Positions 26,936 through 62,226 of a stretch of 64,000 nt of DNA are shown here, in pieces (positions within the stretch are counted from its first letter, which is position 1; every line of letters starts with the position of its first letter). The position numbers were made by a program, and so were the translations under genes. The DNA lies in the NCBI GenBank assembly GCA_000004985.1, contig GG738857.1. The stretch is one strand, 5' to 3'. The stretch comes from Naegleria gruberi (Eukaryota). The notes under the pieces are model-generated. The model worked only from the letters and a program-made list of their open reading frames with translations, was not told where the DNA came from and ran no database searches.

Positions 26936-28859
26936 ATGCTCAACAATAGAATCATCCCTACCACTCCCTACATTAATCCAAAACTTAATTATGGTGCTGC
27001 TGTTATAGCAAATTTACATCTTGATCAAGTTGTAGAAGTGAAGGGATCGCATTGGTATTGTGATCCATCCGTTGTAACAAAAGAAAAGATATTCGGACCT
27101 ACAACAACTCTTCAAGTTGGTGGAATGGACGCCATTGATACTGCTTTTGTTAAAAGTGTTCAAAATTCAATGTTTTTCCGATTTGATCTTGATGATGAAT
27201 TTGTAGTCAATAGAAATTATTCGCTAATTATTAATGGAAATACTTTACAAGTTGATAAGGAACTTGTTTGTAAATATTCAAGTGTATTGAAACAATTAAT
27301 TGATTCGTCTTCATCATCGGAAGTTGTGATTGAAGAGAGTCAAGGTGAATATTTACAACATGTATTAACATTTATTCATGAAGGAAAGTTAGGTGTTGAA
27401 TCATCTAAATTCTCCTCTCAACAAGATGCTGGATTGATCAATTTGAAACAATTAATAGAATTGATTAAAATAGCAGACAAGTATCAAGTTGAAAGTTTAT
27501 TAGTAGAAATTGCAAATATTGTTAATGATATGATTGCCATGATTATTATTGAGAAATGTAAAACTATTTCAAATGAGGGCAAGAAGATAGTATTTGAAAA
27601 GTGTTATGAATTTATTGGATTCAATCCAGCAAGTGTTGTTGCTGCTAAAGTTTACAATGACCAACCAATTATCACAAACTTTTTAGAAGATTTCAGGATA
27701 AAGATGCAAGAACTTCAATTAGCTTCAGAAGATATGATTATTGATTATTTATTCTCAGAAAATGGATATGATGTCAATGTTGATATTACAAACAACAAGA
27801 AGACTTTTGCTAAAATGATTGGTGCCCTAAAAACCGATGCATCATTGATTGCCTTTTCTGAATTGGATGCTGAAACATTGATGGGAATTTTGGGTAGCAA
27901 GTTTTTATCAATGAAAACTGAAGTATTATTGAGCGTTCTTGTAGGATGGTATTTAGCTGATACTAGTAGACTTGAAGATGCATGCAAATTTTTATTAGCA
28001 AACGATTGGAGTGATTGCGAAAGAGAAGCTTTTAACCTATTATTTTACAATATTTTCATATTTGGAGCTAAAAAACATGAAAATACTGAACTGTTGGACA
28101 AACTTAGAGATAAGCTCAGCCAAAATATGTTCAAGAAAGAAAATGTTATGGGTGATGAGTGGCATGTTTACAATGAAAATAGACCACCAAGATCAGCTTA
28201 TCGTAATAACTCTGGAGATTTGAGAGTTTTATTGCTTGGATTGGATGCTTCAGGAAAGACCTGCATCTTATACATGATGAAATTAGGAGAAAGAATTACA
28301 ACAGTAAGTAATTAGTCGCTTTGCAAGTTTTTGAATGTTTGTGAAGATTCCAACAATTGGTTTCAATGTGGAAACAGTGAATAGTTGTGGAAAGAATTTA
28401 ACTGTTTGGGATGTTGGTGGCCAAGATAAGATTCGCCCATTGTGGAGACACTATTATTCCAACACCTCAATTGTCATGTTTGTTGTTGATGCTTGTGACA
28501 GAGAAAGATTTGAGGATGCTTGTGATTGCATTCAAAGACTTGGATCAGAAGATGATTTGAAGGATTGTACCATTTTGGTATTTGCAAACAAGATGGATTT
28601 ACCAAATAGTGCCTCTATCAAAGAAATTGTTGAAAAATTAGAATTGAATAGATTGAAAAATCCAAATTGGATGGTTCAAGGTTGCAGTGCAACTCAAAAC
28701 ATTGGTTTAGAGGAGGGTTTCAAACTTGTAATTAAGGCTCACCAATACCAATCCCAGAATACTGCTGTTATTGAACAGTTGACCTCTCAAGAACATGAGA
28801 AGCCACCAAGAACCACTACTCACTTTGGACTCTTTGAACCTAAATTTAACACATTTTAA
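26936..28859 (+). CDS. BTB/POZ domain - Arf/Arl-family small GTPase fusion protein, 2 exons
   Basis: Exon 1 26936-28303: BTB-like (DDEFVVNRNYSLIINGNTLQVDKELVCKYSSVLKQLIDSS...YLQHVLTFIHEGKL) and Arf P-loop start LLLGLDASGKTCILYMMK. Donor gtaagt at 28304. Exon 2 28347-28859: IPTIGFNVETV, WDVGGQDKIRPLWRHYY, LVFANKMDL, CSAT (G1-G5 Arf motifs). Confidence 0.75.
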
Positions 28860-31967: not shown

Positions 31968-33826
31968 ATGGCTTCTCTTTCTGCTTCAGCCTCATCAAAA
32001 AGTTTAACGGGAAACAACAAGCAAAGTTCCGAAGATCATGTCTGGATAAATGGTTTGTATTGTATTGTATAAGAATATGAATTAATTGTTCTTCTTTAGC
32101 TTGGTATGATCCTCTTGCTTCCGTTACCTCTCTTTCACAATGTATGATGTTTTCTGATATTAATGGTGATGGAGACTACAAACTTGTGGTAGCTACTGCA
32201 AGTAAGAATCCCTTAGAAAGTAAAAAGACAAAACAAGCTCACAGATTGAGAGTCTATAAAGGTACTGGTATTATCAGCGAAAATGTTTTAATGGAGGAAC
32301 CTATTGCACTCGCTTCCTACTACACTGACTACTCATCACCTAAAAGACCTATGATTGTCGTCGCAAGTAGTAATCACATTTACTATTACAAAAACCTACA
32401 ACCATTCTACAAGTTTACTATGCCGGCAAAGACTACAGAAGAAAAGGAAGTGGAAATTTGGCAATATTTAAAGGAATCTAAATATGATGCCAAGACTGGT
32501 TACGCTGAATTAGCAAGACTTAGAGATCATAATATTACTCTTAGTACAAGGAGTTACGAACTTCTTTCTCTTACATCAAATGAAGATATTAAGGCGTTCA
32601 TTGATACCAGGAAAAATTTTGCCTTGGAGAGTCCAAATAATATTACAACTCTATCAATTCTTCCAAAAGACAGAGAAGGAGATGACGCAATTGGATGTCC
32701 AGTTGTCGGTACAGAGAGCGGAATAGTTTTTATCTTAACTCCCCAAGGATCACAAATCATGAAAGCTGTTCAATTGCCTTCAGCACCTGTAAAATTTTGT
32801 ATTGCTGGTAACTATGATAGTGATTATAGAATTACAGCAGCATGTAGAAATGGAAATGTATATACCATTAAAAATGGAGAAGTGAGTGGCGTGGTTATTG
32901 AGTTGGAATCTCATCCAGTTTCTATTGTAAAAATAGACAAAACTTTTGCTATTGGCCTTATGAACAATAGTATTCATTGCTACAATACAAGAGGAAAGAA
33001 ACAATACTCTATCTATTTACCATCTAATATTAAGGACATGGAAGTTCTTGAAATGAGAGGCCAACGTAGTGTGAAATGCATAATAGTAGCTATGGAGAAC
33101 AAGGAATTGAGAATTTATAATGGTAAAAATTTGGTAAATAGGATTGAATTATTTGAAAATATTGCCAGTCTCAGATATGGAATATACGGATCTGAGGTTA
33201 ATAGTTTAATCATTTCTTATAGAAATGGCGGTCTTGATTTTAAAGTTATCTCAAGAAAGGCAAGTTTGGAGAGCAAATCCAAAACTGGTCCACCACCAGA
33301 ACAGGAAGAGCCTTTGGATTTACCCTCCAAGACTTTCCTTTATTTGGAACAAACAAAGAGAGAAGTGGATTATTGCTCTGAAATGCATAATGTTTTCCAA
33401 AAAGATTTGGCAAGAATTAGACTTCACACTGCGAGGGCATATGTTAAAATTTTGACAGATGGCCAAGGTCCATTATCTTACACTTCCGGATCCTCTATTC
33501 GCTTGACGGCCCAAGTGCAAGGACTAGGTCCAAAGTTTAAGATTAATATTGAGGTTCAGAATACTGGCAAAAAGTCAATTTCCCAGTTATTCATTCTATT
33601 TGTTTTTAATGAAGATCTTTACTCGGTGGAGGGTGATGCAAGAAGATTGCTTCTTCCTCCTCTTCTTCCAGGACCAGTATACAGATTTAGTAAGGCAGTA
33701 ACCATGCTTGATCCTTTAGTTGCCCCAGAAACAATGAAATTATATGTTTGTAGTAAGGAGAGTCAAACACCTGTAATAACTGCTGTTGTAAATATGCCAC
33801 CAACAGAAATGATTGAATTAGTATAA
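31968..33826 (+). CDS. BBS1: Bardet-Biedl syndrome 1 protein (BBS1, BBSome subunit) homologue, 2 exons
   Basis: Exon 1 31968-32052 (MASLSASASS...HVWIN, donor ggtttgt), exon 2 32100-33826. Collinear with metazoan BBS1: HVWINAWYDP vs WLDAHYDP, DGDYKLVV, YYYKNLQPFYKFTMP vs YVYKNLRPYFKFSLP, AACRNGNVYTIKNGE vs AACRNGNIYILRRD, GPPPEQE, HNVFQKDLARIRLHTARAYVKIL vs [40 protein letters not shown] vs QGLGPTFKLTLHLQNTS. Confidence 0.85.
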
Positions 33827-34274: not shown

Positions 34275-35500
34275 TTGATAAAAATTCTACCATGGCATTC
34301 CTGTGTCAAAAGTGAATTGACGAGTCAACAAAAAATGCGTAAATCAACATCTGAAAAAACTCTTCCAGAAACAATCAACATAAAAAACCCATCCGAAGAT
34401 GAAAAATCCACTCTCCAACAACAAGATTGGTTTTGTGAATTAGTTTCAACCTACACAGAGCACAAGATAAACGCACTTGAGAAGGAAAATCAAAACCTAA
34501 TCCAAAAGTTGTTGGCTCTAACAGTTGATCAACGCTATATTAAATTTCTTGAATCTATTCCTTCATTGATGCAAAAACAACAAGAGCACAACAAACAAGG
34601 AAACTCTGACAATGAGTACAAAAAGTTAAACGAGAAGCTTGATGAAGTAATTGATGATTATGAGGACGTCAAGAGGAAATTAAAAAAAGCAGAAGAGAAT
34701 GCAAAAAAACCAAAGATGCTTTTGTTGAACAGCACTATTATAATGAAGAGAATATTAAAGAAATCACCAGGAAAGAAGAGAAGGTACGTGAAGAATTGGC
34801 TACCTTGAATGGAAAGTACCTTTATGAAAAGGAATCGTTCTTGAAACAAGTGTCCGAGTTAACAAAAGAAAGAGATCAACTAAATGATCAAATTTCAATT
34901 TACAAAACTCGAAATGATCCTGCCTTGCTGATGAATGACTTTTCTGATAACACAGTCAAAAAGATACATGATGAATATGTCACTTTGAAATCACACGATT
35001 TGAATTCTTTTGTGGGAAGAGTAGTTGAAGAACATTCATTAAGTGAAGATCAGGAATTTGATTTTGATTTAAAAATTGTTGCATTTGCATTCAAAACAGT
35101 CCGTAAACTCATTGAAGAAACCTATTCTGAAATGAATTTCGAACTAATTGGCAAGAAACTTACAAATGAAGAATCAGAAAGAAACCGCCTTATTGAAACC
35201 CTCGTCCAGACAATTGCAAAAATGGAAGAAATTGGAAAGAACAAGAAATTACAACAAGCTGCCAGAGAATTTATAACCAAACTCGTGAAATTCTATTGTA
35301 ACATGTTTCTCATTGATAAGAAGCTTGAATTGGTTTGGGCTTCAACTGGATCTCTCTACAATCCTGAATGGTACGATTCAAGAAATGCAACCAGTAACAT
35401 TGTAGTCACTAATGTTTTCAAACCTGCTCTCATGGACACATTCACCAAAACAGTCTACGAAAAAGGAATTGTTGAAACTACCCAAAAAAGGAAAAAATAA
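34275..35500 (+). CDS. Coiled-coil protein, member A of a lineage-specific family with conserved C-terminal domain; contains an apparent 1-nt frameshift
   Basis: ORFs 34275-34808 and 34796-35500. The good protein sequence switches frame inside an A7 run at ~34703-34709 (…KAEENAKK | DAFVEQHYYNEENIKEITRKEEKVREELATL…). C-terminal domain RNDPALLMNDFSDNTVKKIHDEY...LVWASTGSLYNPEWYDSRNAT...KPALMDTF is shared with the genes at 38801-40422 and 40567-41778. Confidence 0.55.
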
Positions 35501-35522: not shown

Positions 35523-38500
35523 TTATATTAAAACTCTCTTGTATGTAATTAAATATTCAGGATAGCATTGATTCCTATCATAGATAATATATTCATTGTA
35601 GGTGTGTTGTGATACCGACTTGGATCTTCCAATAACACTGTCATAAACTCTTCCATTTGAGTTTTCAATGACAGGTGGTCTTCTTTCATTTCTCATCTTT
35701 TCCCTTGTTTTGAAAACCATCTGACCTAACAGAACTCTACTGAGAAATATAAAACACTCACCATCCTTATTCGAAACACAATATTGATCACTCTTACTAC
35801 AGCAATCAGCAAAGTATATTCCAGCTCCAAACAAACCACTCAAAGCACTCAATCTTTCATCAAAGCCGTGTTCTGAAATGATTGACTTGACTACTTCTGT
35901 TGTTCCATGCCATAAATAAACTTCATTCACATTGGAATCTAATTCACACATTTCGTCAACAAAATCATTTCTAATTGGTATATCCATTACCTTCTTTTTA
36001 TCCTTATAGGAAATTAGGTGTTTCTTCTTTGATAGATACATTTCATAAAGTGATAAATTCTCAATTCTTTCCACTTTTAGAACTTGTAACTTGTTATATG
36101 GAAATGAATCTTTTTCATGGTTTCGTTTCTTTCCTAATGTAATTGTTACACATGTCTTATCCAATAAATCTTGAATATCCTCTTTTAATTCAGCGGTAAC
36201 ATCTATAATTGACATGTTATTTTGATTTGATTTCCAATAGGAAGGCTTTTGTTTCGTTTCCTTTCTTCTTGTCCCACGAAAGAATTCATGTCTTAATAAC
36301 TCAGATGCAGATAAAGTACAAATTTCTTCACGAATATTAATTGAGTCCATTAGCGTTTTCAAAAGAGATGAATATTCATCGAGTCGTTCCATTGACATGA
36401 TGTCAATTACCATTTTCACGAAACAAAACATTTCTTTCTGGAATGGTAATTTGTTTCCCTTTTCCTCTATTTTCACAACATTATCAAATCCATCCAATAT
36501 TAATTTAACTTGTTCATCTTCAATAATTTTCACATACACATTCGCAGCTCTAATATTTCCATGAACAAATGAATAGGTATGAAAATGATGAATGGCTGAA
36601 AGAATCTGAAACCAAATATCTTCCCATCCTGATCTAATGGATGAAAAATCTTTCAATGTTCCAATTGAGTAATATGGCATAACAATACAAAGTTTATCTT
36701 GACAAAGATAAAATCCAATTAATTCTGCAATATTTGAATGTTTGATTTTCTCTAGAATTTCAACTTGTTCAATTACCATTTCAATTTTATCCAATGAATA
36801 TTGTTTAACACGATAGAAAATATTCGAATTCTTATCAACTGCCTCAATAAGCATATAATTCAGAAATGCAGTTTCACTAATTGTAGTCAATTCCAAAGTG
36901 CTTACATCTTGAATTCCTATAATTTCTGATAGTAAATCATAGAATCCTGATCGATAGAGTGTAATTGATTTGTTTCGAATATCATTTCTGTTAATTTGAA
37001 GAGTTTCGAGTTCAGTTTCTTGTTCCATAATTTTTAGACAGGGCGCAGTTGATGTTGAGTTGTTTGTTTCCCACAATTTTTTCTCAATTTCAATTGATCT
37101 TTTGCGTGCTTCAATGTTCTCACTCATTAATTTGTAATTAATTCCATATTTAGAAATATCAAATTTAGAAATTATTGTTAAAGTTAATTGCATATTTTTA
37201 AATTCATTACAGATGGTAGTAATATTATTGATAAAATCAAGGCAATTATTTTTCATATCATCAATAAAGTAGCAATATCCTTTCAATTTCTTTTTCAATA
37301 AATGATACAATTCCAAATTTGGATTTTCTTTCAATAAGGAAAATAATTTTGAAATGGAATCTCCAATATCATTTGTATCATTGCTTATTTCTGAAAATTC
37401 AAGTGTTGAAATATTACTTGAAAAATTTGAAAGAAAATTTGCAACTCCACTCAATTGCTTATTACATGTATTAATCCATTTCTCCAAATTAGTCGAATAT
37501 TCTTCAAATGTTAATTCCAATTCTTCATAATTCGATATTTCATTACATGGAATTTCTTCTCCACCATTCAAAAATTCATTAATTTCTTTAGAAATTTCAC
37601 TCAAACTCTTTACAAATTCAATAAGAAAATTTCCATAATCACTTTTCTTAATTTGATTATTCATTGATTCATGGATTTGAAATTTGCTTCGAAATTCAAT
37701 TAAATCTTGAGGATTTTGTGATGAATAAATCGATTTTGAATTAATTTGGATAGGGCTGAGAAGATTCTTAATATCTGTAAACTTTTTCATGTCATATTCG
37801 TTAATTATGATATTTCTAATAAGTCTATCAGTGGTAAATCTTATAGTTTCCAATTGATTTTTCCTATTTTTGTATTCGAAACCTAATTGGGAAAGCTCTG
37901 TAAATATTGATGCAAAATGAATGAATTTAATTTCTATTGGAGATGTGCTAGTAGATGCTTGACTCACTTCTACATTAATTTCTTTTGTTTCCACATTAGT
38001 CTTATTTCTTTTTTCAGATTTCATTTCCTTTTGAATCGTTTTTATGGATTTCCCGCCACATTTCAATGCTATTGATATTTTGATATTAGGATGTTCTAAT
38101 AATAATTTTCACAATTTCAATTTTATCTCTTTCGCAAGCAACTTGCAAAGGTGTTTTAACCTTCCAAAATTGGTAAAATAAAAACTTGCAAATTAATACT
38201 TACCATCTTTAATCTTAAAACTCAATTAATTAAATATCAAACTTACATTCTGAATAATTCAATAAATGTATACTCATCATTAACAAGTTACTTACACCCT
38301 TATTAACATCCAATTCATTTGATTCCAATAATAATTTCACAATTTCAAGATGACCATCATAACATGCAATAAACAAACAAGTTTGTTCTGATTCTACACC
38401 ACAAAATGTCTTGAATAACAAGCTAATAAGTATTCATTTTGCTTCAAATCATACTTACTTCATTGACATTGACAAGTGACAGTAAATATTTGACAATCTC

Positions 38501-38782
38501 AACATTTCCACTTCTACAAGCATGATACAATGGAACCTAAACACATTTAACAATATATGATGATATAAAACCTACTCCGATTCTTGGATTTACCTTCTTT
38601 TCTTCTAACAAGTATTTTGTAATTCTTGTTGAATTATTAGAAATTGATTCTTCTAATAGAGTTTTGTTCGAAACAAGAGTTTTTGAAAAATCGGACAAGG
38701 ATTCAGCTAATGAAATGAATTGCTCTAAATTATCACTTGAAATTGACGAGATTACTTTCTTCTCAAGTTTCTTTTTCAACAT
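35523..38782 (-). CDS. Ankyrin-repeat / protein-kinase-like (probably pseudokinase) / PARP catalytic domain protein, multi-exon
   Basis: Large exon 35523-38066. Kinase-like region has HGNIRAANV in place of HRDLKxxN and GFD in place of DFG. C-terminal PARP fold: VYLWHGTTEVVKSIISEHGFDERLS...GAGIYFADCCSKSDQYC...YNEYIIYDRNQCYPEYLITYK (H-G-T, Y, E of the ART triad). Upstream small minus-strand exons encode ankyrin repeats (VPLYHACRSGNVEIVKYLLS; LFIACYDGHLEIVKLLLESNELDVNK; GKTPLQVACERDKIEIVKII) linked by gtaagt/ag introns. Assigning the ANK exons to this gene is an inference. Confidence 0.6.
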
Positions 38783-38800: not shown

Positions 38801-40422
38801 TTAATTCTTTTTTGACACTCTGACAATTACTTTTGCCTTCTCATAAATACTTCTCGATTGCAACTGCATTAGGGATGGAAAGACTGTGCACTGAATCTTT
38901 GGAATGGTTGTGTTATTTCTTGCATCTTGTTCGTATGGATTAAAATTGTCCTTTGCTTTATACCAAACGAATTCCAACTTTTTTGAATTGGTAAACATTT
39001 TCATGTAGAGTTCAATTGCCTTATCAAGTAATTCTGAGGTTAGATTACTAACTTCCCGATCTCTACAAATATGCTCAGGATTCTCAACTTTGAATTTGTT
39101 GAAAACGTGTTCAATGGAGGTGAAAATCTCATTGTGGCAGCTTTTGAGTAGTTTTTTCTTATCTGAATCTTCCAATGGCTTGCATCCATAACCTAATTTC
39201 TTGTCTTTCAATCTGTGTTGTAATGATTTGCCCTTATTGTCGTCTTGAGCTGGTGAAAAGAGGTATTTGGCTAATTCCATTTCAATTTCACATTCAAAAT
39301 CTTGTGCTACATCATCTCCATTAAGATTTTCACTCATTTCTTCACAAAGAGAACCCAATGAATTCTTAATTTCAAAATAAGCATCCTTAATTGACTTGGT
39401 GGTATTGTCGGAGAAATTGTTCATCTCAAGAGCTGGATCATGTTCTGCTTTGACAATTCTAAAATTATCTTCAAGTTGAGCAATCTTTGATTCTAAACCA
39501 TTTTTCAGTTCGATTAGTGCTTCTTTTTCTTTCTCAAATCTTGATTGGTTTTCACTTGCTTCGGTTCTCATTCTGTTTTTATCCTTTTCCAGATTTGAGA
39601 TTTTACTTTCAAGAGATTGAAGGTTTGCCTGGAGTTCAAGTGTGTCATTTTTAAGATCCTTATTATCACTTCTCAAATCTTCAAGCTTTTTGGTTGTATT
39701 TTTGTGGCTGTCTTGTTCAGTCTTCAACTTTTGTTTAGTTTCATCATGTTCACTTCTCAATTTGTTGAAATTCTTTTCTAAAGTGTCCTTTTCCTTCTTG
39801 AGATCTGTAAATTCTTTTTTCTTTGTATTCAATTCAGTAATCTTTTGATCTTTTTCACTAACCAATTGCTTTTCACGGTTCTGCAAATCATCATTTTCTT
39901 TCTTTAATTTCTTCTCATTATCTCTTGCTTCATTGCTTTCTTTGGTTAATTTTTTAATTCTTTCATCTTGATTTTGGGATTTTTCTAATGAGATTGATTT
40001 AAGGAATTCAACAAGTTTCTTATCAACTTGTACAGTGTCTAATATGTCTCTTAATCTGTCAACTTCCTTGGTATGCTTTTCTGACTCTTCCTGGATGTGG
40101 TTAACTTTGTTTTTTTCCTTATCAAGATTACTTTGGAGAATAGAAACTTGTTTTCTTTGACTCTCTAAATCTTGTTTAACCTTGTCAAGTTCGTGTTGGA
40201 GGATTTGTGCTACATTCTTTTCCTGGTCCCAATTACTTTGCAGATTGGAGGTTGTTAGCTTTTCTTTATTAAAGGCCTCTTCAATTGACTTGAGTTGAGT
40301 TTGAAGTTGTGAAATTCTTTTTTGATAATGGGAGGGATCTACTTCTTGTGTTGGGGGTGGAACATCACTTGTTGGTTGTTGTTGGGGTTTGATGGTGGAT
40401 GATGGTTTATTTGAATTGGATT
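38801..40422 (-). CDS. Coiled-coil protein, member B of the lineage-specific family
   Basis: Long heptad-rich region (LQSNLDKEKNKVNHIQEESEKHTKEVDRLR...). C-terminal domain AEHDPALEMNNFSDNTTKSIKDAYFEIK...FVWYKAKDNFNPYEQDARNNTTIPKIQCTVFPSLMQ homologous to members A and C. Likely ATG at 40422 (rc) preceded by an A-run. The ORF-track start at 40528 is probably upstream read-through. Confidence 0.6.
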
Positions 40423-40566
40423 CGTTTGTCATTTTTTTTAAAGACGTACGAAAATTTGACGAGTTGTAATGTAATTTTGAAACCTGCATTCCGTGTTCCG
40501 TTCTGTGAATTGACGAGTCATCATTCACTTGTCAAATGTTTAACTATCAAACAAATAATCAAAAAA

Positions 40567-41778
40567 ATGGGATTCTTTGGGTTTTTCAGTGATGACAATA
40601 AAGAAGAAATAAAGAAGGAGTTGAAGGCGGCAAAGGAACAAATTGAATACCAAAAGAAAGAGGTAGAAAGCCAGCGAAACAAAATTATAACATTAGAAAC
40701 AAATAACACCAATTTGCAAACTAGAAACACAACTTTACTCCAAGAATTTAAAATTTTAAACCCGAAACTTGAAAAATTAACACTTGAAAAACAAAATTGC
40801 GAATATATTTCCTCTCAATATCAAGCAAAAGCACAAGAATTGAACAAGAAATTACAAGAACTCGACAAGCAGTACAATTCCACTGTTCAAAATCTCAACA
40901 CTGAATTACAATCTTGTAAATTTCAATTCAATCAAGCAATCACTGAGTGGAAGCAAGAGAAGAACAAATTTGAATTAGAATTGAAAAGTGTAAAACAATC
41001 AAGAGATCAACAAATTTCTTATTCCACTCAATTACATTCAGCATTGACTGAAGAAAGAGAGAATTTCATAAACTTGTCCCAAACCAAAGAACAAGAAATT
41101 GAAAAGTTGAAAGCTGACATTATTTTAATCAAAGCTCAAAATGATCCAGCACTTGTTGTCAATGATTTCTCAGATGAAAGTCCTAAACAAATTAGAGATT
41201 TGTATCTTCAATCAAAATCAAGTATTGACACTTTGACAACAACCTTGGAAGACAATTTGACAGAAGATGAACAAGAACAATTGGAAATTATTATAGCCAA
41301 GACACTCTTTGAGAAATTAGAAGAGACTGTTATGAAATTTGTGTGTGAAACAAAACAAGTTGACAGCAGTGATAGAAAGCTCATTGGTGAATTATTGAAA
41401 TCAGATATTGAAATGAGAAAGCTTGTTATTTATCATACTTCAGTTGGATTAATGAATCAAATTAAGGAACAATTTGCCAGTTTTAGTAATTTTATTGAAA
41501 ATTGTAAAGATGAAGAAAGAATTCAAATTCAAAATGAAATTGACACAATGTCAACAAGTTCAATTTCAATGCTAGCAATGATCTTGAGAAATGAGCAAAA
41601 TATTGGTTTCGTTTGGTATAAACCAAAATCAGATTTCAATACTTTAGAACAAAGATCAAGAAATGCTGATAAGAAAATTGTAATTGATACTTGCATTTAT
41701 CCTTGTTTAATGTTGAAGGGATCAAGAAGTGTTTTTGAACAAGCAGTTGTTACAACAAAATTAACAAAACACAAATAA
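40567..41778 (+). CDS. Coiled-coil protein, member C of the lineage-specific family
   Basis: ATG at 40567 (aaaaaaaATG). Coiled coil, then AQNDPALVVNDFSDESPKQIRDLYLQSK...FVWYKPKSDFNTLEQRSRNADKKIVIDTCIYPCLMLKGSRSVFEQA. Divergently oriented to member B with ~145 bp between start codons. Confidence 0.65.
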   Translation: MGFFGFFSDDNKEEIKKELKAAKEQIEYQKKEVESQRNKIITLETNNTNLQTRNTTLLQEFKILNPKLEKLTLEKQNCEYISSQYQAKAQELNKKLQELDKQYNSTVQNLNTELQSCKFQFNQAITEWKQEKNKFELELKSVKQSRDQQISYSTQLHSALTEERENFINLSQTKEQEIEKLKADIILIKAQNDPALVVNDFSDESPKQIRDLYLQSKSSIDTLTTTLEDNLTEDEQEQLEIIIAKTLFEKLEETVMKFVCETKQVDSSDRKLIGELLKSDIEMRKLVIYHTSVGLMNQIKEQFASFSNFIENCKDEERIQIQNEIDTMSTSSISMLAMILRNEQNIGFVWYKPKSDFNTLEQRSRNADKKIVIDTCIYPCLMLKGSRSVFEQAVVTTKLTKHK

Positions 41779-41994
41779 ATATTTACAAATATTACAAAAT
41801 ATTTAAAAATATTGAAAAAATTACTGTAAATTTTGATCATCACACTAAATCTGCATTAACTTTCTACACAATTGTAGTTGACGGAATTTACGGAATTGAA
41901 AATTGTAATATGACTTAATTTGACATGGGAAGTGTCCATTTCAACACGTCATGTCAAAGTTTCTAATTATCAATTCTCAAAAAACAAAAAAAAT

Positions 41995-43871
41995 ATGAGC
42001 ACCAGCACCCTCATCAAACCACAAGCAGGTAAAAACTTTGTCGTTTGCATTGACTTTGGATCTTCAGGTTCTGGCAGTTCAATTCTCTTCGTAAAGGATG
42101 AAGATAAAATTTTCACTCTCAAAACTTATCCAGACTCCCCTAACGTAGTTTACAATAAGAATATGTCATGTATTTTATATGAAGATGGTAAGAGACATAG
42201 TATTGGTTATACTGCTAGAAAGACAATGTTCTTTGAAAATGATGACGAAGATTCAGATGAAGATTCCGGTGAAGATTCGGATAGAGATTCAGATAGTGAA
42301 AGTGAAGAATCTCATGGATCAACTTCAACTGCTCCATCAAAAAAATCAGCAACTCCACTAAAAGATAGAAAATTTATCAGAGATTTAAAAATTCAATTCA
42401 TGGAAGCAACAAAAGATGAGAAGGAAATTTCAATTCCAGAAATAGTAATTTCCAATGATGGAACAACCAAATCTTTACTTGATGTGATGGCAGATTACTT
42501 ATCCATGTTATTCACAGATTTTATCATGAAGAGTTTAAAGAATAACGATAGCTCTGTTAAGAAAACTGATGTTCGTTGGTGCATTACAGTTCCCGCCAAC
42601 TATTCAGAACATCAAAAATCCCTAATGAGGAAAGTGGCATGTAAGGCAAAGATTATAGATAAGGAAAATTGTGATGAGAGTGATTTGATTATCATTTCTG
42701 AACCAGATGCTGCTACCATGTTCTGTATGAAACATAAGGCTAAATCTAAACCACTTACAAATGGTGAAACTTTTATGGTAGTTGATGCTGGTGGTGGTAC
42801 TGTAGATGGTAAGTTTGAGAAATTCTTGATTTAACATTTAAATTCTGTAACAGTCAGTTGTCATATGCTTGAAAATGGTAAATTGAAAGAGTTGGCAGTT
42901 CAAAAGGCAGAGCTATGTGGTTCTACATTTATTGATAGAGAATTTATTAAGATTTTAGAAGAAAATTGTGATAATTTCAAAGAATTTACAGAGAAAAATC
43001 CAGAAACTCTTGTCAAGATATTATCAATTTGGGAAGATGTTAAGAGAGGTACTTTGACAGTTGACAAGAAATTGACATTTGACACATCTCCAATGTTTAA
43101 AAAAGCAAAACCTAATAGTTCAATTTACAAATCAAGATCTACCAAGATTGCATTAACAGATGAACAAATGAAAAGAATATTTGACAGTCAAGTGTCAAAA
43201 GCACTCAAATTGATTGATGAAGTTTATAGAGATTATGAAGAAGATTATCCAAGTAGAAAGATGGATCACTTATTTATTGTTGGTGGTTTAGGAGATAATG
43301 GTTATTTCCAAAATCGTATTAAGGAAAGATTTGAAAAGAAATTTAAGGAAATTTTAATTCCACTTTTCTGTTCGACAGCTGTCATGGAAGGAGGTGCATT
43401 ACTTGCTAAGGATCCATCATTCGTTCAAGAAAATCAAAGTTATCATATGGTGTTGGTGTCATGGAAGAATTTGAAGAAGGGCATCATGCTGAAAGCAAGT
43501 ACAAGGTCATTAATGGTAAACATATGGCAGTTGACGTGTTGGATGTTTTTGTTGAACAACGTGAAGAAGTTGAAATTGATAGAGAAATTGTTAGAGAATA
43601 TGAATGTTTACCAGGTGCTACTCAAATTGATGTTGTTCTCTATTCATCTATTAAGAGAAGAGAAGCAATTCCTTATATTGATTCACCACTAGTTTCTAAA
43701 GAGGAAACAATTACAATTCCTTTTAGAGATTCATCAAAGGAGGCAGATAGAAGAGTTTTTATTAAATTCTTCTTTGGTAAATCAGAATTAATGATTACTG
43801 TTGAAAATGCACAAGGTGAAGTTAAGGAAATTAAGAGAGATTTTGAAGCAAACTCACTTGCCCTAAAATAA
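41995..43871 (+). CDS. HSPA12-like atypical Hsp70 (actin-like ATPase) protein 1; one intron plus an apparent frameshift (possible pseudogene)
   Basis: VVCIDFGSSGSGSS (phosphate-1), ISEPDAATMFC, FMVVDAGGGTVD (phosphate-2). Intron ~42810-42853 (gtaagt...aacag) gives GGGTVD-V-SCHMLENGKLKELAVQKAELCGSTFIDREF, collinear with paralogue 2. LFIVGGLGDNGYF (adenosine motif). Near 43411-43420 the reading frame must shift by 1 nt to continue into the conserved C-terminus (…LLAKDPS / IIRSRKSKLSYGVGVMEEFEEG…, matching paralogue 2 DSLISTRRMRMTYGVKAQKGSEE). Confidence 0.6.
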
Positions 43872-44116: not shown

Positions 44117-46556
44117 ATGTCATCATCAACTGTTCCTGTTCGTTCAGGTTCCCTCAACAAGAAGAAAGTTGTCATTTCCATTGATTTTGGTACATCAAGA
44201 ACTGGTTTCTGTTATTCACTCACCAATGATGTGAAAAAGACTCGAGTTAAGAATACCTCATGGAAAGATGCACCAAGTGGAGTTTCATTCCCAAAGACTC
44301 TCACTCAATTACTTTATGAAAAGAGTGATACAAGAAAACCTGTTGCTTGGGGTTACACTTCACTTGACATGTTGTCAAGAGAATTTGAAGATGAGAGTGA
44401 ATCTGATGAAGATGAAGAAGGTGGTGAAGAGATTCCAGCACAAAATAGCAAGTATTATCATTTCAAGACATTCAAAATGGGATTATTCAATAATCCATCT
44501 GGTATGGTGAAGGATACAACTGGTGTTTTTGAAAAGAATGTTGGTGAATTGATAGTTGACTATTTGAAATTATTATTCCATGATCAGATTAAGCCAACTG
44601 TTGAGAAATCATTGGGATCTAAATTGAATCTTGATGAAGTTACTTGGTGTTTAACAGTTCCAGCCATTTGGAAAGATGAACAAAAATCAGATATGAGATT
44701 AGCTGCTTACACTGCTGGTTTAACAAAGACACCTGAAGCATCTTCTGATGATTTTAAGATTATTCTTGAACCAGAAGGAGCTGCTGCTTATTGTATGGAA
44801 TATCAAGCTTCTAAAGGTAAACCATTGAGAGAGGGCGAATCATTCCTTGTTTGTGATCTTGGTGGTGGTACAGTTGACTTGACATGTCATAAATTTGAAA
44901 AGGCAAGATTGAGAGAATTAGCTGAAGGATCTGGTGATGCATGTGGTTCTACATATTTAGATGATGCTTTTATTATTTATTTGGAAGAATGTTTTGGTAA
45001 GAAATTTGTTGAAACCTTAAGGAAAAAGTATGGCCAAACTTATTTGGACATTTTAAAGATTTGGGAAAGAACAAAAGTTACAACAACAGATTTAACAAAA
45101 GATATTAATGTTGATATGCCTGGTCAATTAAGTAGTTTTTTAGAAAGTGCCAATGTTAAAAGTGATAAATTCAGAGCTAAAAGAGGTCAACTCAAAATTA
45201 CAAGTGAAGCTTTACAAACAATTTATCAAGATTCATTAGAAAAAACAAGAAATCTTGTTGAAAAGCAATTAGAAACAATCCAATCAGAGACTGGTAAAAT
45301 GGTTGATTATATTTTCATAGTTGGTGGTTTTGGTGCTTCCAAAGTAGTTCAAAACTTTCTAATTGACAATTTCTCTTCACAAGTTAAGGGAATTGTAATT
45401 CCAAATGAACCTGCTGAAGCTGTTGTTGATGGTGCTGCATTATTAGGTATTGATGATTCATTAATTTCAACACGTAGAATGAGAATGACTTATGGAGTTA
45501 AAGCTCAAAAAGGAAGTGAAGAAATATTCGATACTTTTGTAATTGCTAATCAAGAACTTGAAGTTGATCAAGGAATTTCAAGAGAATACAAAGTTCAAAG
45601 AGCTAATCAACAAGCTATGAAAATAATCATCTACAGCACTAAATTGAAATCAATTACAAAAGTTGACGAAACTAAATGTCATAAGATTGGTGAAATTCAA
45701 GTACATATGACAGATATGACAGGTGGCATGGATAGAATAGTGAAAGTTACAATGTATTTTGGTAGATCAGAAACTAGAGTTACTGCCATTGAAAAGAATA
45801 CTGGAATTGAGTATAGTGCATTAATTAAGTATGATGGTGAATTATTTTCACATGGTGAAAGTATTGCTGACACTCCACCAGTTCAACCTCACCATTTGTA
45901 AGTATAGAATGTTATATTGAAGTTTACAATTTCTAACTGTTAAAAGAATTTTTGCAAATGATGTTTCAGGATCAATGTGGGCAAGAGATGCTTTACCAAC
46001 AATGAGTTTACTTAAAGTAAGTATTCTTCCATGATGTTTTTTACTAATATTCAATTAGACCTCTCATAATAACAGAGTAGGAGCACTTTATGAAGCATGT
46101 TATGCCTTTTTAGAAACAAGAAAAGAAACTTCAGATATTTCATCGTGTATTCTTCATAATCATGATTCAATCATTATTTATGATAAAAAACCTGCAACTC
46201 CATCACTTGTTTCTGATTACATGATGAAATATAATGCCGACGGTGGCAACAACTTTTTAAAAGTATTCGAAACTGTCGAACAAGTTCTCAAATCGAGTAA
46301 TAACGAGGAATTCAAACCAATAGTTTTCTTTATGACAGATGGTGCTTGGCACGACGACGGAGCACCTGCCTACTTGGAAGGCTTAATGTTAAGATATCCA
46401 GATTTAACAGTTCATGTCATTAATTTGGGTAGTTCAATTAATTTTGAATTGATGAATAGAATTGCAAAGATTGGTAGAGGAACCATTTCAACATCTGGAA
46501 TGAGCGCTGTAGAATTGAAGAGTACCTATCTCAGCTTGCTTCCTTACTTGGATTAA
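44117..46556 (+). CDS. HSPA12-like atypical Hsp70 ATPase protein 2 with C-terminal von Willebrand factor A (vWA) domain, 3 exons
   Basis: Exon 1 44117-~45896: VVISIDFGTSRTGFCYS, ILEPEGAAAYCMEY, FLVCDLGGGTVDLTCHKFE, IFIVGGFGASKVVQNF. Donor tt|gtaagtat. Exon 2 ~45953-46012 (acceptor ...ttaaaag) encodes L-IFANDVSGSMWARDALPTMSLLK (DxSGSM MIDAS motif). Donor gtaagt; acceptor ...acagag. Exon 3 ~46076-46556: VGALYEACYAFLETRKE...NADGGNNFLKVFE...IVFFMTDGAWHDD...VHVINLGSS (vWA fold). Splice phases are compatible across both introns. The ORF-track stop at 45901 is the TAA inside the gtaagt donor. Confidence 0.6.
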
Positions 46557-49413: not shown

Positions 49414-50790
49414 TTAGTAACTTTCTATTACACACGCTTTTAAAGATGAAATAATTATTTCAAATTGTTGTGAACAATTAATATTATGATTTCTTTCTTT
49501 GCAAAATTCAATTAATGGAATAAAATTAGCAAGAAAATGAGTTGTAAAAAGAGATCTCTCACCAATTTCAGTTTTAAATTCATTCTCCAAATTGCTAGAA
49601 TCACAGCAATCGTCACAAATATCAAATGAATCATAACCATCCACTGTTGATTGATAAAATCCTGAACATGTTTGATCACATATTTTACATGTCTTTGTTG
49701 ATTCAATTTTAAAAATATCAAAATTATTTCCATACTTTTGTTTCATGTTTGGAATCAAGTTACTTATTTCTGATGGTAAATGATTTAATAATTCAAAATA
49801 TTGTAAAAATTCAACAATACTTCTTCCTACACATGTCAATTTGTGATCATTTAGGTATGATTTGATTAACCATTTTAGTGATTCTTCCATATTTGGCAAT
49901 GTACCAACACCAACACAATACATGTAAGCTACTCCATATTGTGCAAAGCAATAGTTTTGTTTGGCTGATTTTAACAACCATTCAAGTCCAAGTTTTAAAT
50001 CTTTTTCATAATATTCACCAGAATAGTAATAAATACCAATCCAATATTGAGCTAAACAATTTCCATTTCCAGCAGATTTGAAATACCAATCTGTTGCTTT
50101 TTTGAACTCTTCATTAAGTCTATAATGTCTAGCGAGTTTATGTTGATATTTACTATTTCCTAATTCAGCTCCTTTTAAAAGCCATTTTTCTTTCATTTCT
50201 GATGAATTTTTGTTTAATTTTTTCATTTTCTTTATGGCAGGAAAATAATTTAATTCTGCTGATTTTTCCAAAAATGTAATATCCTTATTATATAAATAAA
50301 TTAAATAGTTAAAAATTGGATTATTGGTTTGTTTGGCACATTTTTTATAAACCTTGTTCAATTTAATTCTACTTTTAATATTTGGTAAATCAATTTCAAA
50401 TTTTTTTAATTGTTTAATAATTGAATTTGGAGAAATAATTAATTTTTCCAATACTTTTAAACTAAAATCACCACTTAAATATAATTTTTCCAATTTTGTA
50501 AATAATTTACAATTAAAAATAGTTTTTAACATTTCAGTATTTACATTATTAAAACTACATTTACAAATTTGTAATACTATTTGACTATTACAAAATTTTT
50601 CCATATCCGAAAGTGAAACAAAACGTGTAGAAACCATTTTCAATTTTAAATAGTAATAAATAGACATATCAGACCAATATTTACAAACAAGTCTATGAAC
50701 CAACCATTCATTTGGTAGATAACTTGAAATGTGTGCTAAAATCTCAGGTGGAATTTCATCATTGAAATTTCGTTTTGATAAATTAGACAT
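49414..50790 (-). CDS. F-box / Sel1-like repeat protein
   Basis: N-terminal F-box (IPPEILAHISSYLPNEWLVHRLVCKYWSD). Central Sel1/TPR-like repeats (AELGNSKYQHKLARHYRLNEEFKKATDWYFKSAGNGNCLAQYWIGIYYYSGEYYEKDLKLGLEWLLKSAKQNYCFAQYGVAYMY). Cys-rich C-terminus. Confidence 0.65.
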   Translation of the reverse strand: MSNLSKRNFNDEIPPEILAHISSYLPNEWLVHRLVCKYWSDMSIYYYLKLKMVSTRFVSLSDMEKFCNSQIVLQICKCSFNNVNTEMLKTIFNCKLFTKLEKLYLSGDFSLKVLEKLIISPNSIIKQLKKFEIDLPNIKSRIKLNKVYKKCAKQTNNPIFNYLIYLYNKDITFLEKSAELNYFPAIKKMKKLNKNSSEMKEKWLLKGAELGNSKYQHKLARHYRLNEEFKKATDWYFKSAGNGNCLAQYWIGIYYYSGEYYEKDLKLGLEWLLKSAKQNYCFAQYGVAYMYCVGVGTLPNMEESLKWLIKSYLNDHKLTCVGRSIVEFLQYFELLNHLPSEISNLIPNMKQKYGNNFDIFKIESTKTCKICDQTCSGFYQSTVDGYDSFDICDDCCDSSNLENEFKTEIGERSLFTTHFLANFIPLIEFCKERNHNINCSQQFEIIISSLKACVIESY

Positions 50791-51206
50791 TTTTTTTAAA
50801 GTTGATCAAAACTCCACAATTTCTAATTCTATTAATAAAAGTGCAAAATCACCATCACGTTTATCACGTTTTGTCAAGTTAGAAAGTTCCAACTCAATTT
50901 TATTTAAATAAAATTTCATTGTTTTTGAATATTACTTAATCATTGAGAGTTGATGAAACCAGGCTTCAATACATGTCTTAATGAGCCTTCCGAGTTCTCG
51001 CATTGGATTAAAAAAATTGTTTAATATTCTTTACAATCCATTCAACAATGAAGGCTTGATTGAAAGGCTTTCATGAATTAGAACTCATGAACTTGATATT
51101 AATATCATTAGAAAAAATATCTTTTCATCATCAACTACCACTCTCTTGTAGAAATATTCATCATCCGATCACATCAAAGTAGTACTGATAGAAACAATTT
51201 GCTATT

Positions 51207-52668
51207 TTGTTCATGGGTAATAAATCTTTTAAACAAGCGAACAACAAATCAATTTCATCAACAAGTTTATCATCACAACCCAATTCCAATTTTAATAACA
51301 ATAACAACAACAATAATAACATGTATCAAAGAAATACTCATCATCTTAGAACTGGTGGGAAGAGTGTAGTTTTTGGTTGCGGATATAATTCAGCATCATT
51401 ACTCGGAGTATCACACTCTGATGTTGAAGATAATGGAGTTCATGGATCAAATTCCTTTTCTCAAGATGTAACACAATTTGTTTTCTTATCAACATTACAA
51501 GAATTATTGAATAATGATTCTCCTGGACAACATGTTTGTCAAATTGTTGTTCAATTTTCCAAAACCTACTTTTTAACATCTCATGGTCATGTCTATACTT
51601 CATTTCCATTAGCAAGAGATGTTCAATTTGATAGTATTTTACCTGATCGTGTTGTGGAAATGAGATCAGGACAGAATAGAACATTATTTAGAACTGAATT
51701 TGGTCAAATTTATGTAAAAGCAGATGGTCCACTCTCTAAAATTACTGGAGTTACTAATACACAAGTAAATAATGTAAAATTATTTGGAGTTGGTGGTTTA
51801 CATTACTGGTTATTAGATGATGAAACTAATCGTTTATATGGTGAAGGAGAAATTAATGGAGCTAGTGTTGAAAAAGTTATAGAATTGAATGATTATTTAC
51901 AGAAAGATGAAAAAGTTAGAGATATTGTTACAGGTGGTAATTCGTATGTTTTTTTTATTTCATTTTATAGTAACAATTATATATAACATTGTTTAAATAA
52001 TGATGAATTGAAATTTGAAATTTGATAATAGATTTGTTTTAATAACAAATAAGAATAATATTTATGTATATGGAGAGAAGGAAGCTTTTGGATCAACAGT
52101 TGATGAACATTATTCTAAACCAACAAGATTAAGACAATTTGATGGAATGGTAAAATCAGTTGTTTGTGGATGGTATTTTACAATTATTTTAACATTTAAT
52201 GGACAATTATGGATGGCAGGTAGAAATACATATCAACAACTTTCATCTAAAAATCTATCATCTCATGATAATGTTGTTCAATGGTTTATAGATGATTCAT
52301 TAGTATTAAATCCAAATGAAGAAATTGATCAAATTGGATCTGGATCAGATCACGTTTTAATATCAACAACAATTGGAAGAATTTTCACAAGAGGAATGAA
52401 TACATATGGTCAACTTGGTAGAGATAATAGAACTCAATCTGGAGTATTTATGGAACCAAGTTTTAAAAATCAAAATTACAAGGAAATTATTTCTAAATTT
52501 GTTGGACCAAAATTTTCAATTTCATTTGCAGATAATAATTTTAATACTTTAAGTTCCTTTTTAATTATTCATTCAGTTAGAGAATCAAAGGAACTTATTC
52601 AAATGAGATCAAAACTTTTAAATTGTTCAAAACAATCTTTATTATCAGATTTAGTAATTTTACATTAA
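51207..52668 (+). CDS. RCC1-repeat (regulator of chromosome condensation-like) protein, 2 exons
   Basis: Exon 1 51207-51943 (donor gtatgt), exon 2 52024-52668 (acceptor gataatag). Repeated GxNxxGQLG-type blades (GRNTYQQLSS, GMNTYGQLGRDNR, YGEGEINGAS). Confidence 0.6.
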
Positions 52669-53247
52669 AACATTTTAATTTATTATTTAATATATTATTT
52701 TGATGATTGTAAAGTTAAAATGATGATCATGTGAGGATTAGTTATTATTGATTCAAGTCATTAGAGATAGATGAATAATAATTGATGAAATTTGAATGAA
52801 AATTTATTGTTTTTAGAATGTACTGTCAACATAATTTTTCCATAAAAGTAACAATTGTGAATCTTCGTAATGTTAAATATCAAAAATCAAAAACTGATTG
52901 ACGTTGTGTAAAACCAAACGTCATCAAAAATCGACTCGTCATTAAAAAAAATATCTGAACAGCTCTTAACAATAACAATCATCATCACCTGTTTCTGATA
53001 ATAAAATTATTATTATTTGATTATTATCGGTTTCTAATAACAATAGAGGTTAAGTGGCAGTAGAGTAATATAGAAGTTTTTTATAGAAGGAGTAGAAACA
53101 AATCATCATCATCATCATCTCTCTCCAGTTACTCACTCCATAACTATATTGTTATCATCATCAATATCATCAATTTATTATTATTATTAATAATATTAAA
53201 TAGTGTACATATTACAATAATAATAATAATAATATTAAAAAATTAGA

Positions 53248-54992: not shown

Positions 54993-55023
<31 letters not shown>

Positions 55024-58908: not shown

Positions 58909-58975
58909 ATCACTCGCATATATTATTATTAAATTTGTATATTTTTTAAAATGATCATATTCTTTCAAAAGAAGA

Positions 58976-61670: not shown

Positions 61671-62226
61671 AGTGTTTTTAACGTTCTATTAAAAATTAGA
61701 ACATTTTGGCGGGTTGAACGATTCTTGAACTAAGACACTTCTCAATAGAATTTATTAACAGGTAACAATGTCGAAATAACTTTATGATTAAGGGCATCCT
61801 GCTAACTCCCACTGATTTAAAAAGTCAGACGAAATTCACTAAAGTGGTAGTAGCATTGAATAATAATAAATAATTTAATTTTAAAATTGTAAAACGAAAT
61901 GATTATTATTCAATAATATCTTCACTGTTGGAGCACAATTTCCAATAATAATGCGATCATCAATGTCATTGTCATTTCCTTTCACATCATAATCACAAAA
62001 AAATCACTGATTCAAATCTATTCAATTAGCCTTTGTATTTGACTCTACTATTGTTGTTTCTCTGATTTTAACGTTTGATTCTCTCCAACTCACCTCTATT
62101 GGAGCCTTCATAACTTATAATACTCAACAGCGCTCTCTTTCACGAAATATCACAACACCTCATCAATAATAATTCATTGAAAAAAAACAATTCTATTGTA
62201 TCATATATATATTGTAGAGCAAAGAG

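Follow-up and report, generated by a model that had tools for sequence, protein, structure and literature searches.

The subject of this analysis is a locus on the minus strand of a 64-kb window of Naegleria gruberi nuclear DNA (by the window we mean the whole stretch that was analyzed, which is AT-rich, at ~30% GC). The locus is a real N. gruberi gene, in which an ADP-ribosyltransferase (ART) is joined to a dead kinase-like domain, and ankyrin-repeat exons lie directly upstream of it on the same strand. The main open reading frame (ORF) spans 35523..38066 (847 codons plus stop, 35523 being the final base of the stop codon) and is 100% identical to the NCBI “predicted protein [Naegleria gruberi]” of 833 aa (P0001), which carries the automatic UniRef name Poly [ADP-ribose] polymerase. 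The annotated coding sequence of that protein starts at an ORF-internal ATG at 38024 and has no ankyrin portion; the position 38066 is simply the first TTG of the mechanically listed ORF, and no exon boundary lies there. An initial annotation of the same DNA had described a single fusion gene of ankyrin repeats, pseudokinase and PARP catalytic domain. The three kinds of domain do lie where it placed them, but the gene is not continuous as assembled, being interrupted by a frame break of 1 nt.

The gene was previously in the databases as an unnamed predicted protein. New here are the recognition of its dead kinase, the unannotated ankyrin exons, and the wider kinase–PARP family around it; the protein is a new architectural variant within the PARP superfamily. 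We considered whether the whole gene could be a pseudogene and rejected this, as the 847-codon ORF is intact in ~30%-GC DNA and all family-invariant PARP residues are kept. A Pfam scan of the ORF matched three families (PARP, Pkinase and PK_Tyr_Ser-Thr); with the spliced upstream exons included, the PARP, Pkinase and Ank families that had been proposed for this locus were each matched.

The ADP-Ribosyltransferase Domain

The C-terminal part of the protein is a complete PARP/ARTD catalytic domain (aa ~607-845 of the main ORF; 35532..36248, minus strand). The Pfam PARP profile (PF00644) scores 89.7 bits over aa 653-843 (cutoff 26.7; E=2.4e-25), and the domain exceeds this match, starting near aa 607 with an N-terminal PSYW...VDVT...TLG...RIEN extension that is conserved family-wide. 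The triad residues H720 (35907..35909), Y751 (35814..35816) and E825 (35592..35594), all on the minus strand, align with the His, Tyr and Glu of tankyrase. The motifs quoted in the initial annotation were all located in the ORF: LWHGT at aa 718-722, GAGIYFAD at aa 747-754 and YNEYIIYD at aa 823-830. The NAD+-binding motifs HG[ST], GxYFA and KSxxY are all present. In the family alignment, H720, G721, T722, G749, Y751, F752, A753, K758, S759 and D760 are invariant and E825 is near-invariant. Because the H-Y-E triad and all of the family-invariant NAD+ motifs are kept, we take the ADP-ribosyltransferase active site to be intact.

Among solved structures, the tankyrase-1 and -2 catalytic domains match best in sequence (E=2e-16), followed by PARP12, PARP15 and PARP10; the paired motifs in the tankyrase alignment are LWHGT/LFHGS, GAGIYFA/GAGIYFA, KSDQY/KSNQY and YNEYIIY/YAEYVIY. 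An AlphaFold2 (AF2) model was built from a 10-sequence family alignment and compared with the PDB by Foldseek. Its predicted local distance difference test score (pLDDT) is ~70-90 in the PARP domain and 70-80 in the kinase-like domain, and the top structural matches are the catalytic domains of PARP15 and PARP10 (E=1e-11 to 7e-11, target-normalized template modeling score 0.73-0.80). The C-terminal ART fold with an H...Y...E pattern, which had been read from the letters of the ORF, is thus borne out by profile, by triad residues and by modeled fold, with the Glu (E825) present by sequence.

A Degenerate Kinase-Like Domain

Upstream of the PARP domain, a degenerate protein-kinase-like domain (aa ~390-597; 36276..36899, minus strand) is recognized from its Pkinase match, the family alignment and the fold. 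Two Pfam kinase profiles hit it: Pkinase (PF00069) at aa 409-523, with 40.9 bits where 31.7 are required (E=2e-10) and with only positions 18-140 of the 263 in the profile covered, and PK_Tyr_Ser-Thr at aa 423-522 (E=1.6e-10). In the Foldseek search, PAK, MST, ULK and DAPK kinases follow the PARPs, with E about 1e-10 for PAK, MST and ULK. The catalytic loop is reduced to the remnant HGNIRAAN (36540..36563, minus strand; HGN is aa 502-504), where the family consensus is HCD[IV]KPxN; against the family sequence HCDIKPEN, the Asp has become Asn and the Lys has become Arg. The DFG equivalent is LDGFD (aa 524-528; 36483..36497, minus strand) as against LGDFD in the family, which puts a Gly at the position of the metal-binding Asp, and the activation segment (~25 residues) that would follow LDGFD is deleted together with the APE motif. 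At the alphaC Glu position there is a Gln (EQVEIL vs. the family's K-E-LKIL, as in KELKIL). The VAIK-type Lys (K421) and the catalytic-loop Asn are retained. Of the 34 family members scanned, the window protein has the weakest Pkinase score (2e-10), with others reaching 1e-44.

Since the alphaC Glu, the catalytic Asp, the metal-binding Asp and the activation segment are all lost, the prediction that this domain is a pseudokinase is well supported. The altered Asp and DFG (HGN and GFD) from which the initial annotation had drawn the same conclusion hold up against the family alignments. With the PARP domain intact and these kinase elements gone, ADP-ribosylation is, on sequence grounds, the sole catalytic output predicted for the protein; the retained Lys and Asn mean that the pseudokinase may still bind nucleotide.

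It could be argued that the kinase-like domain is still active by a non-canonical mechanism, which would make the protein a true bifunctional kinase/ADP-ribosyltransferase. WNK and CASK are established examples of kinases that are active despite missing canonical residues, K421 and the catalytic-loop Asn are in place here, Asp residues stand beside the displaced DFG position in LDGFD, and the majority of the family members appear to be catalytically competent. We consider this highly unlikely, given the joint loss of four elements (the alphaC Glu, the HRD Asp, the DFG Asp, and the entire activation segment with its APE), the ending of the Pfam match at the catalytic loop, and the independent degeneration of related copies (P0010 with HGN, P0036 with HAN/NFT and P0019 with HGG), which suggests that the constraint on kinase chemistry is relaxed.

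The N-Terminal Region and the Ankyrin Exons

The part of the main ORF that precedes the pseudokinase (aa ~15-389; 36900..38023, minus strand) has no recognizable domain, and Pfam gave no match on residues 1-390. The AF2 model makes it all-helical, with long helices at low confidence (pLDDT mostly <60) and a ~330-aa helical stretch at aa ~44-372. Likeness to the Naegleria paralogues is limited to the final ~45 residues of the region and is non-significant (E about 1); the N-terminal ~340 aa of the window protein have no detectable counterpart in the Naegleria kinase–PARP paralogues, and a metagenome scan using the unique N-terminal 400 aa returned no relatives.

Upstream of the main ORF, four short open stretches on the same strand (38782..38089) encode ankyrin repeats with no internal stops. 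Exon 1 (38594..38782) begins with an ATG at 38782, the very coordinate given as the gene's start in the initial annotation, and its 63 codons encode a degenerate N-terminal capping repeat. It is followed by intron 1 (38593..38537; 57 nt, GTAAAT..TAG) and by exon 2 (VPLYHACRSGNVEIVKYLLSLVNVNE; 38459..38536), which lies within the Ank_2 match and has a GTAAGT donor at 38458. Intron 2 (38458..38410; 49 nt, GTAAGT..AAG) keeps the frame, as does an alternative intron 2 with its GTATGA donor at 38454 and its TAG acceptor at 38394 (exon 3 then running from 38393). Exon 3 (..ESEQTCLFIACYDGHLEIVKLLLESNELDVNKG; 38296..38409) ends at a GTAAGT donor at 38295, intron 3 (38295..38161; 135 nt) again has the form GTAAGT..AAG, and exon 4 (38089..38160) encodes VKTPLQVACERDKIEIVK and then IIIRTS before the ankyrin frame stops at the TAA at 38088..38086. 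All of these features are on the minus strand. From 38160, exon 4 continues into the region of the main ORF without an intron, in the other reading frame.

The ORF containing exon 3 alone matches Pfam Ank at E=7e-6, and the spliced exons match Ank_2 at E=5.9e-26, giving three clear repeats and a degenerate N-terminal cap over ~150 aa; the small upstream exons with ankyrin repeats that had been proposed at this locus are therefore well founded. Their proposed splicing to an exon at 38066 is not, this being the TTG of the listed ORF, with the two frames differing by 1 nt. A search with a conceptual protein made of the ankyrin part and the N-terminus found only P0001 (over its non-ankyrin part) and generic ankyrin proteins, with no orthologue bearing the junction.

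The splice signals of the exons match the kinds used elsewhere in the window. An intron at 28304..28346 (plus strand) ends in AAG, and its splicing restores the conserved Arf-GTPase motif ITT/IPTIGFNVETV (the slash marks the exon junction); a second clear AAG-ending intron lies at 2181..2262 on the minus strand. The AAG at the end of intron 3 and the phase of intron 2 raised the question whether the ankyrin exons are decaying. We rejected this, as AAG-ending introns occur elsewhere and the GTAAGT..AAG form of intron 2 is in frame. As a separate matter, AAG 3' splice sites are apparently in ordinary use in the N. gruberi genome, which is relevant to gene prediction.

The Frame Break Between the Ankyrin and PARP Parts

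As assembled, the two parts of the gene are separated by a 1-nt shift in a run of four A (AAAA, 38106..38109, minus strand) that falls inside the last ankyrin repeat. The frame of the main ORF reads KLLLEHPNIKISIALKCGGKS... and is closed upstream by a TGA at 38111..38109, the last repeat (...IEIVK/LLLEHPNI..., with the break at the slash) is cut in two, and the switch of frame is confined to the ~20 nt that lie between the stop codons of both frames. If the run is read as AAA, the result is ...IEIVKLLLEHPNIKISIALKCGGKS..., a seamless ankyrin repeat running into the main ORF (the corrected-frame junction stretch across the break is IEIVKLLLEHPNI; IEIVKLLLEHPNIK). With this correction, the last repeat scores 23.8 bits against Pfam Ank, up from 16.7 (cutoff 21.1), and its match ends at profile position 28 and no longer at 22; taking out one A leaves an ORF of 1005 aa without interruption, or of 1001 aa if the alternative intron 2 is used. 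That the ankyrin exons and the main ORF descend from an ancestral fusion is well supported.

The extra A could nevertheless be real, and the locus could now hold two genes: one for a ~150-aa ankyrin-only protein ending at the TAA at 38088..38086, and one for the annotated 833-aa protein starting at the ATG at 38024. The frame break is, after all, present in the assembly, the annotated start is at 38024, an in-frame ATG with a long ORF follows just past the break, and the N. lovaniensis and N. fowleri relatives do without ankyrin repeats. The ankyrin-only product, however, would break off halfway through helix 2 of the last repeat, with the other half of that repeat in the frame of the next gene; no such protein is annotated, the spacing between the two genes would be only ~60 nt, and all of the ankyrin exons are intact, so that any fission must be very recent. 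We regard such a fission as possible but unlikely.

Splicing offers another way around the break: a donor in or after exon 3 could be joined to the TAG acceptor at 38096 (or to a downstream AG), skipping the fourth repeat and leaving three repeats in frame with the rest. Eleven single-intron in-frame GT..AG routes of this kind can be enumerated, for example from GTGTAA at 38297 to TAG at 38096 (202 nt), with the product ...ELDVNK-EHPNIKISIALKCGG. About one-third of random donor–acceptor pairs are in frame, so the 11 routes have no statistical weight. Each of them needs either a donor weaker than the adjacent canonical GTAAGT or an acceptor lacking a pyrimidine tract, and the stretch to be skipped looks coding, being a well-formed ankyrin repeat. 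We find this account highly improbable, slightly more so even than an active kinase. Programmed +1 frameshifting or transcriptional slippage at AAA-A was also considered and, by reasoning only, is unlikely, as the run of A is just 4 nt long and is followed in the 0 frame by one of the common Ile codons, where a stop or a rare codon would be expected.

We return, then, to the ancestral fusion. The present break could be due to a short-homopolymer assembly error or to a very recent frameshift or allele that splits the gene, or it could be skipped by splicing, and we do not choose among these; when assembled contigs were searched for an exact copy of the annotated protein, none was returned. The public gene model, which lacks the ~150 aa of ankyrin repeats, is likely either a mis-annotation or the reflection of a very recent gene fission.

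A Protist Kinase–PARP Family

Searched exhaustively with HMMER, 1.84 billion representatives yielded 4766 hits. The top hits were N. lovaniensis C9374_000562 (917 aa) and N. fowleri FDP41_002169 (1105 aa) and FDP41_002250 (1353 aa), along with the short N. gruberi paralogues XP_002672366 (JGI 72525, 265 aa) and NAEGRDRAFT_73830. A local hidden Markov model (HMM) of the kinase region found the same domain upstream of PARP in 40 of the ~155 top proteins and matched the annotated P0001 at aa 373-624 (ORF aa 387-638; E=2.9e-79). In a Pfam scan of 34 family proteins, Pkinase and PARP were found in all 34, with the window protein colinear with the other 33. The family was defined in the present analysis and is not a curated one: its members have an HCD/DFD-type kinase directly upstream of a PARP domain with the PxYW...RIEN extension. 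Named sources are Naegleria species, Nolandella (which we take to be an amoebozoan), Hanusia phi (presumably a cryptophyte), the prokinetoplastid Apiculatamorpha spiralis, an MMETSP transcriptome and environmental eukaryotic contigs. The initial annotation had called the coupling of an ADP-ribosyltransferase to a pseudokinase unusual. With at least 34 cluster representatives in several protist lineages sharing the kinase–PARP core, the pairing of kinase and PARP is not so in itself; what is unusual is the dead kinase half.

The kinase of the family has its own signature: its catalytic loop reads H-C-D-[IV]-K-P-x-N, DFG is replaced by D-F-D, the activation segment has the form G-T-x-x-Y-x-A-P-E, and the C-lobe is shortened. 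Its relation to the NEK, Rad53 and CaMK kinases is no more than generic. Most members retain HCDxKPxN and DFD. Degeneration has occurred independently in P0010, P0036 and P0019, with the motif changes given above, and the N. lovaniensis protein has a deleted activation loop. The N-terminal modules vary from member to member and include SNase (N. fowleri FDP41_002250), 24 DUF4116 repeats, a WD40 propeller and leucine-rich repeats, and the PARP-only relatives carry a ZNFX1-type helicase, PDZ or PAN.

Two further observations concern the relatives of the PARP domain. In a 1594-aa protein (P0016) of the choanoflagellate Didymoeca costata, a PARP domain of the same sub-family has a ZNFX1-type superfamily-1 helicase as its fusion partner in place of the kinase (matches to AAA_11/AAA_12 and a weak ZNFX1-domain match, E=3.8e-4). 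ZNFX1-type helicases are antiviral sensors in animals, and the fusion hints that this ART clade may be used together with nucleic-acid or pathogen sensors. Three IMG/VR viral contigs encode distant relatives of the PARP core (L001 3001..3342, L002 3001..3207 and L003 3001..3342), with 27-39% identity over ~70-130 aa of the query (aa 714-844; 714-783 for L002) and no match outside the PARP core.

Proposed Role of the Protein

Taken together, our preferred reading, which we hold to be somewhat more probable than its competitors combined, is that the window protein is a degenerate, lineage-specific N. gruberi member of an uncharacterized protist kinase–PARP family, with an ankyrin N-terminus that is either still present or was so until recently. 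In the mechanism that this architecture suggests, the ankyrin repeats and the ~330-aa helical region would bind or select a partner or ligand, the pseudokinase would serve as a regulatory or oligomerization/dimerization scaffold (possibly binding nucleotide through its kept Lys and Asn), and the C-terminal PARP domain would ADP-ribosylate either the protein itself or a recruited target.

Several points weigh against this reading. In the assembled sequence the ankyrin exons and the main ORF lie in different frames, and no protein in the databases covers these exons, whether on their own or joined to the PARP part. Two points tell against a present-day fusion in particular. The ATG of exon 1 lies only 18 nt past the stop of the upstream same-strand gene (38801..40528), leaving almost no room for a promoter. 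And the top 150 relatives offer nothing closer to an ankyrin module than a weak match in one 440-aa fragment, which is not convincing, and because of this the ankyrin–kinase–PARP order is uncorroborated by orthologues. With identities of only 33-38% to its nearest relatives, the protein is without a close orthologue. The AF2 model is modest overall (mean pLDDT 59, predicted template modeling score 0.36). An H-Y-E triad is no proof of poly- over mono-ADP-ribosylation, as PARP3 and PARP4 keep H-Y-E and yet are mono-transferases. Finally, the mechanism of scaffolding, dimerization and recruitment is one that we infer from architecture only.

A role in stress or defense is suggested only indirectly, by the variable, sensor-like N-termini, the several paralogues per Naegleria genome and the recurrent loss of kinase catalysis, as well as by the kinship of the ART to the vertebrate PARP7/10/12/14/15 group. 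A bolder version of this idea would make the kinase–PARP core with its swappable N-terminal modules an ancient and widespread protist stress or anti-viral sensor–effector, in which a ligand bound by the repeats would lead to RNase L-like oligomerization and then to ADP-ribosylation of targets or consumption of NAD+. We think this rather unlikely; if it were true, the repeated loss of kinase catalysis would mark the passage from a dual enzyme to an allosteric switch. PARP enzymes are classified largely by their accessory domains, and the kinase–PARP core is now seen in several distant protist lineages. The natural kinase-dead copy of N. gruberi and the apparently kinase-competent FDP41_002250 form a tractable pair for studying how a kinase fold regulates a PARP.

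Neighboring Genes

The PARP gene sits within a small tandem cluster in which only ~20 nt separate neighboring genes. On either side of it lie paralogous coiled-coil genes, three in all, at 34275..35500 (plus strand), 38801..40528 (minus strand) and 40399..41778 (plus strand). They have a common C-terminal domain (DPAL..N.FSD ... FVWYK ... YEKA) and 27-28% mutual identity (E=4e-28 and 9e-23), and one of them has a sub-threshold Pfam match to MIEAP (“mitochondria-eating protein”; E=3e-4).

Farther away, on the plus strand, a gene for the BBSome subunit BBS1 lies at 32144..33826 (Pfam BBS1 E=3.5e-76, GAE_BBS1 E=9.5e-30); its ORF probably lacks a short 5' exon, the profile match beginning at position 19. 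A pair of ORFs (41920..42834 and 42865..43692) is joined by a GTAAGT..CAG intron into a plus-strand gene at 41920..43692 that appears actin/Hsp70-fold-like by its GGGT motif, and a divergent Hsp70-like ORF is found at 44117..45901 (plus strand; HSP70 E=1e-14). An 1886-aa ORF at 53248..58908 (plus strand) combines a coronin-like N-terminus (DUF1899 and WD40) with gelsolin repeats and a C-terminal villin headpiece, an arrangement that presumably resembles Dictyostelium villidin. The G+C content of the window is 22-27% at 50000..62000 and 30-35% in its other parts.

Comparison with Known Systems

The closest comparisons are within Naegleria itself. C9374_000562, FDP41_002169 and FDP41_002250 have in common with the window protein the kinase-like-to-PARP order, the PxYW...VDVT...RIEN extension and the H-Y-E triad; identity to these kinase–PARP paralogues is 29-33% across whole aligned proteins and 35-45% over matched stretches (phmmer). 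FDP41_002250 retains HCDIKPEN, DFD and APE, which makes its kinase a probably active one, and carries SNase at its N-terminus. Between kinase and PARP, these relatives have a coiled-coil linker of ~100 aa that is missing from the window protein, and, unlike the window locus, all three are without ankyrin repeats. The short N. gruberi paralogues (72525, 80603 and NAEGRDRAFT_73830) belong to the same PARP sub-family and keep H-Y-E (72525 is 50% identical), but they are essentially PARP-only, having neither the kinase-like nor the ankyrin part of the window protein.

Some of these genes have appeared in earlier surveys. Six N. gruberi PARPs were listed by Citarelli et al. (2010), with the window gene absent from the list; 72525 and 80603 were left unplaced between the PARP clades, with H-Y-E retained and no known N-terminal domains. 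Ankyrin plus PARP was stated for N. gruberi, without an identifier, by Perina et al. (2014), who did not mention kinase fusions, and the supplement to that paper holds nothing on which N. gruberi protein was so counted. The main text of two eukaryote-wide PARP surveys (PMC2964712, PMC4245714) makes no mention of a kinase–PARP architecture, and full-text literature searches, whose coverage excludes subscription journals, gave no description of a kinase– or pseudokinase–PARP fusion.

Tankyrase 1/2 (PARP5a/b) is the obvious point of reference, and the initial annotation had called the gene tankyrase-like. This is apt for the catalytic sequence (YAEYVIY of tankyrase aligns with YNEYIIY) and for the placing of ankyrin repeats N-terminal to a C-terminal H-Y-E ART, and the further remark that a kinase-like module stands in place of SAM holds as well; the likeness does not extend to the tankyrase zinc site. 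Tankyrase has five ankyrin repeat clusters, a polymerizing SAM domain and an ART zinc site, and the window protein has none of these, carrying the helical region and the pseudokinase instead. Could the locus still be the Naegleria tankyrase orthologue? The best PDB sequence matches are indeed the catalytic domains of tankyrase-1/2, there are ankyrin repeats upstream, and a single-domain tankyrase-like ART has been reported in N. fowleri (Sowa et al., 2022; PMC9688111). Pfam finds no SAM domain in the whole ORF (E<=0.1) or in its N-terminal 400 aa (E<=0.05). The ankyrin repeats number about four, three clear ones and a degenerate cap, as opposed to five repeat clusters. In a HMMER alignment to tankyrase-1, the zinc-site insertion is largely absent, with Cys at only two of the four positions that we take to be the zinc ligands and Asn at the His position. 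A ~330-aa helical region and a kinase fold intervene between repeats and ART, the ART fold is closest to PARP15 and PARP10, and the short paralogues were assigned to no PARP clade by Citarelli et al. The defining features thus fail, and we reject this identity, for which hardly any likelihood is left.

The structural matches point rather to the clade 3 enzymes: PARP10, PARP14 and PARP15, together with PARP7 and PARP12, are the best of them and have the same P-x-x-W ... RIxN N-terminal extension, and one paralogue bears the NCBI name “TCCD-inducible-PARP-like.” In clade 3 enzymes the catalytic Glu is replaced (H-Y-I/L/T/Y) and the accessory modules are macro, WWE, zinc-finger or RRM domains; the window protein, by contrast, keeps the Glu and carries a kinase fold.

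For the pairing of ankyrin repeats with a dead kinase, the nearest parallels are RNase L, which consists of ankyrin repeats, a pseudokinase and a KEN RNase that is switched on by pseudokinase-mediated dimerization, and ILK, which consists of ankyrin repeats and a pseudokinase. The window locus resembles both in having N-terminal ankyrin repeats followed by a dead kinase fold, by analogy only: no KEN or ribonuclease domain is matched by Pfam in the ORF, the effector being a PARP domain, a ~330-aa helical region separates repeats from pseudokinase, and the kinase fold is closest to NEK, Rad53, CaMK and PAK and not to RNase L or IRE1. In its logic, the mechanism that we propose would nonetheless resemble those of tankyrase, where ankyrin repeats and an oligomerizing SAM domain are coupled to a PARP, and of RNase L, where ankyrin repeats and a pseudokinase are coupled to an effector.

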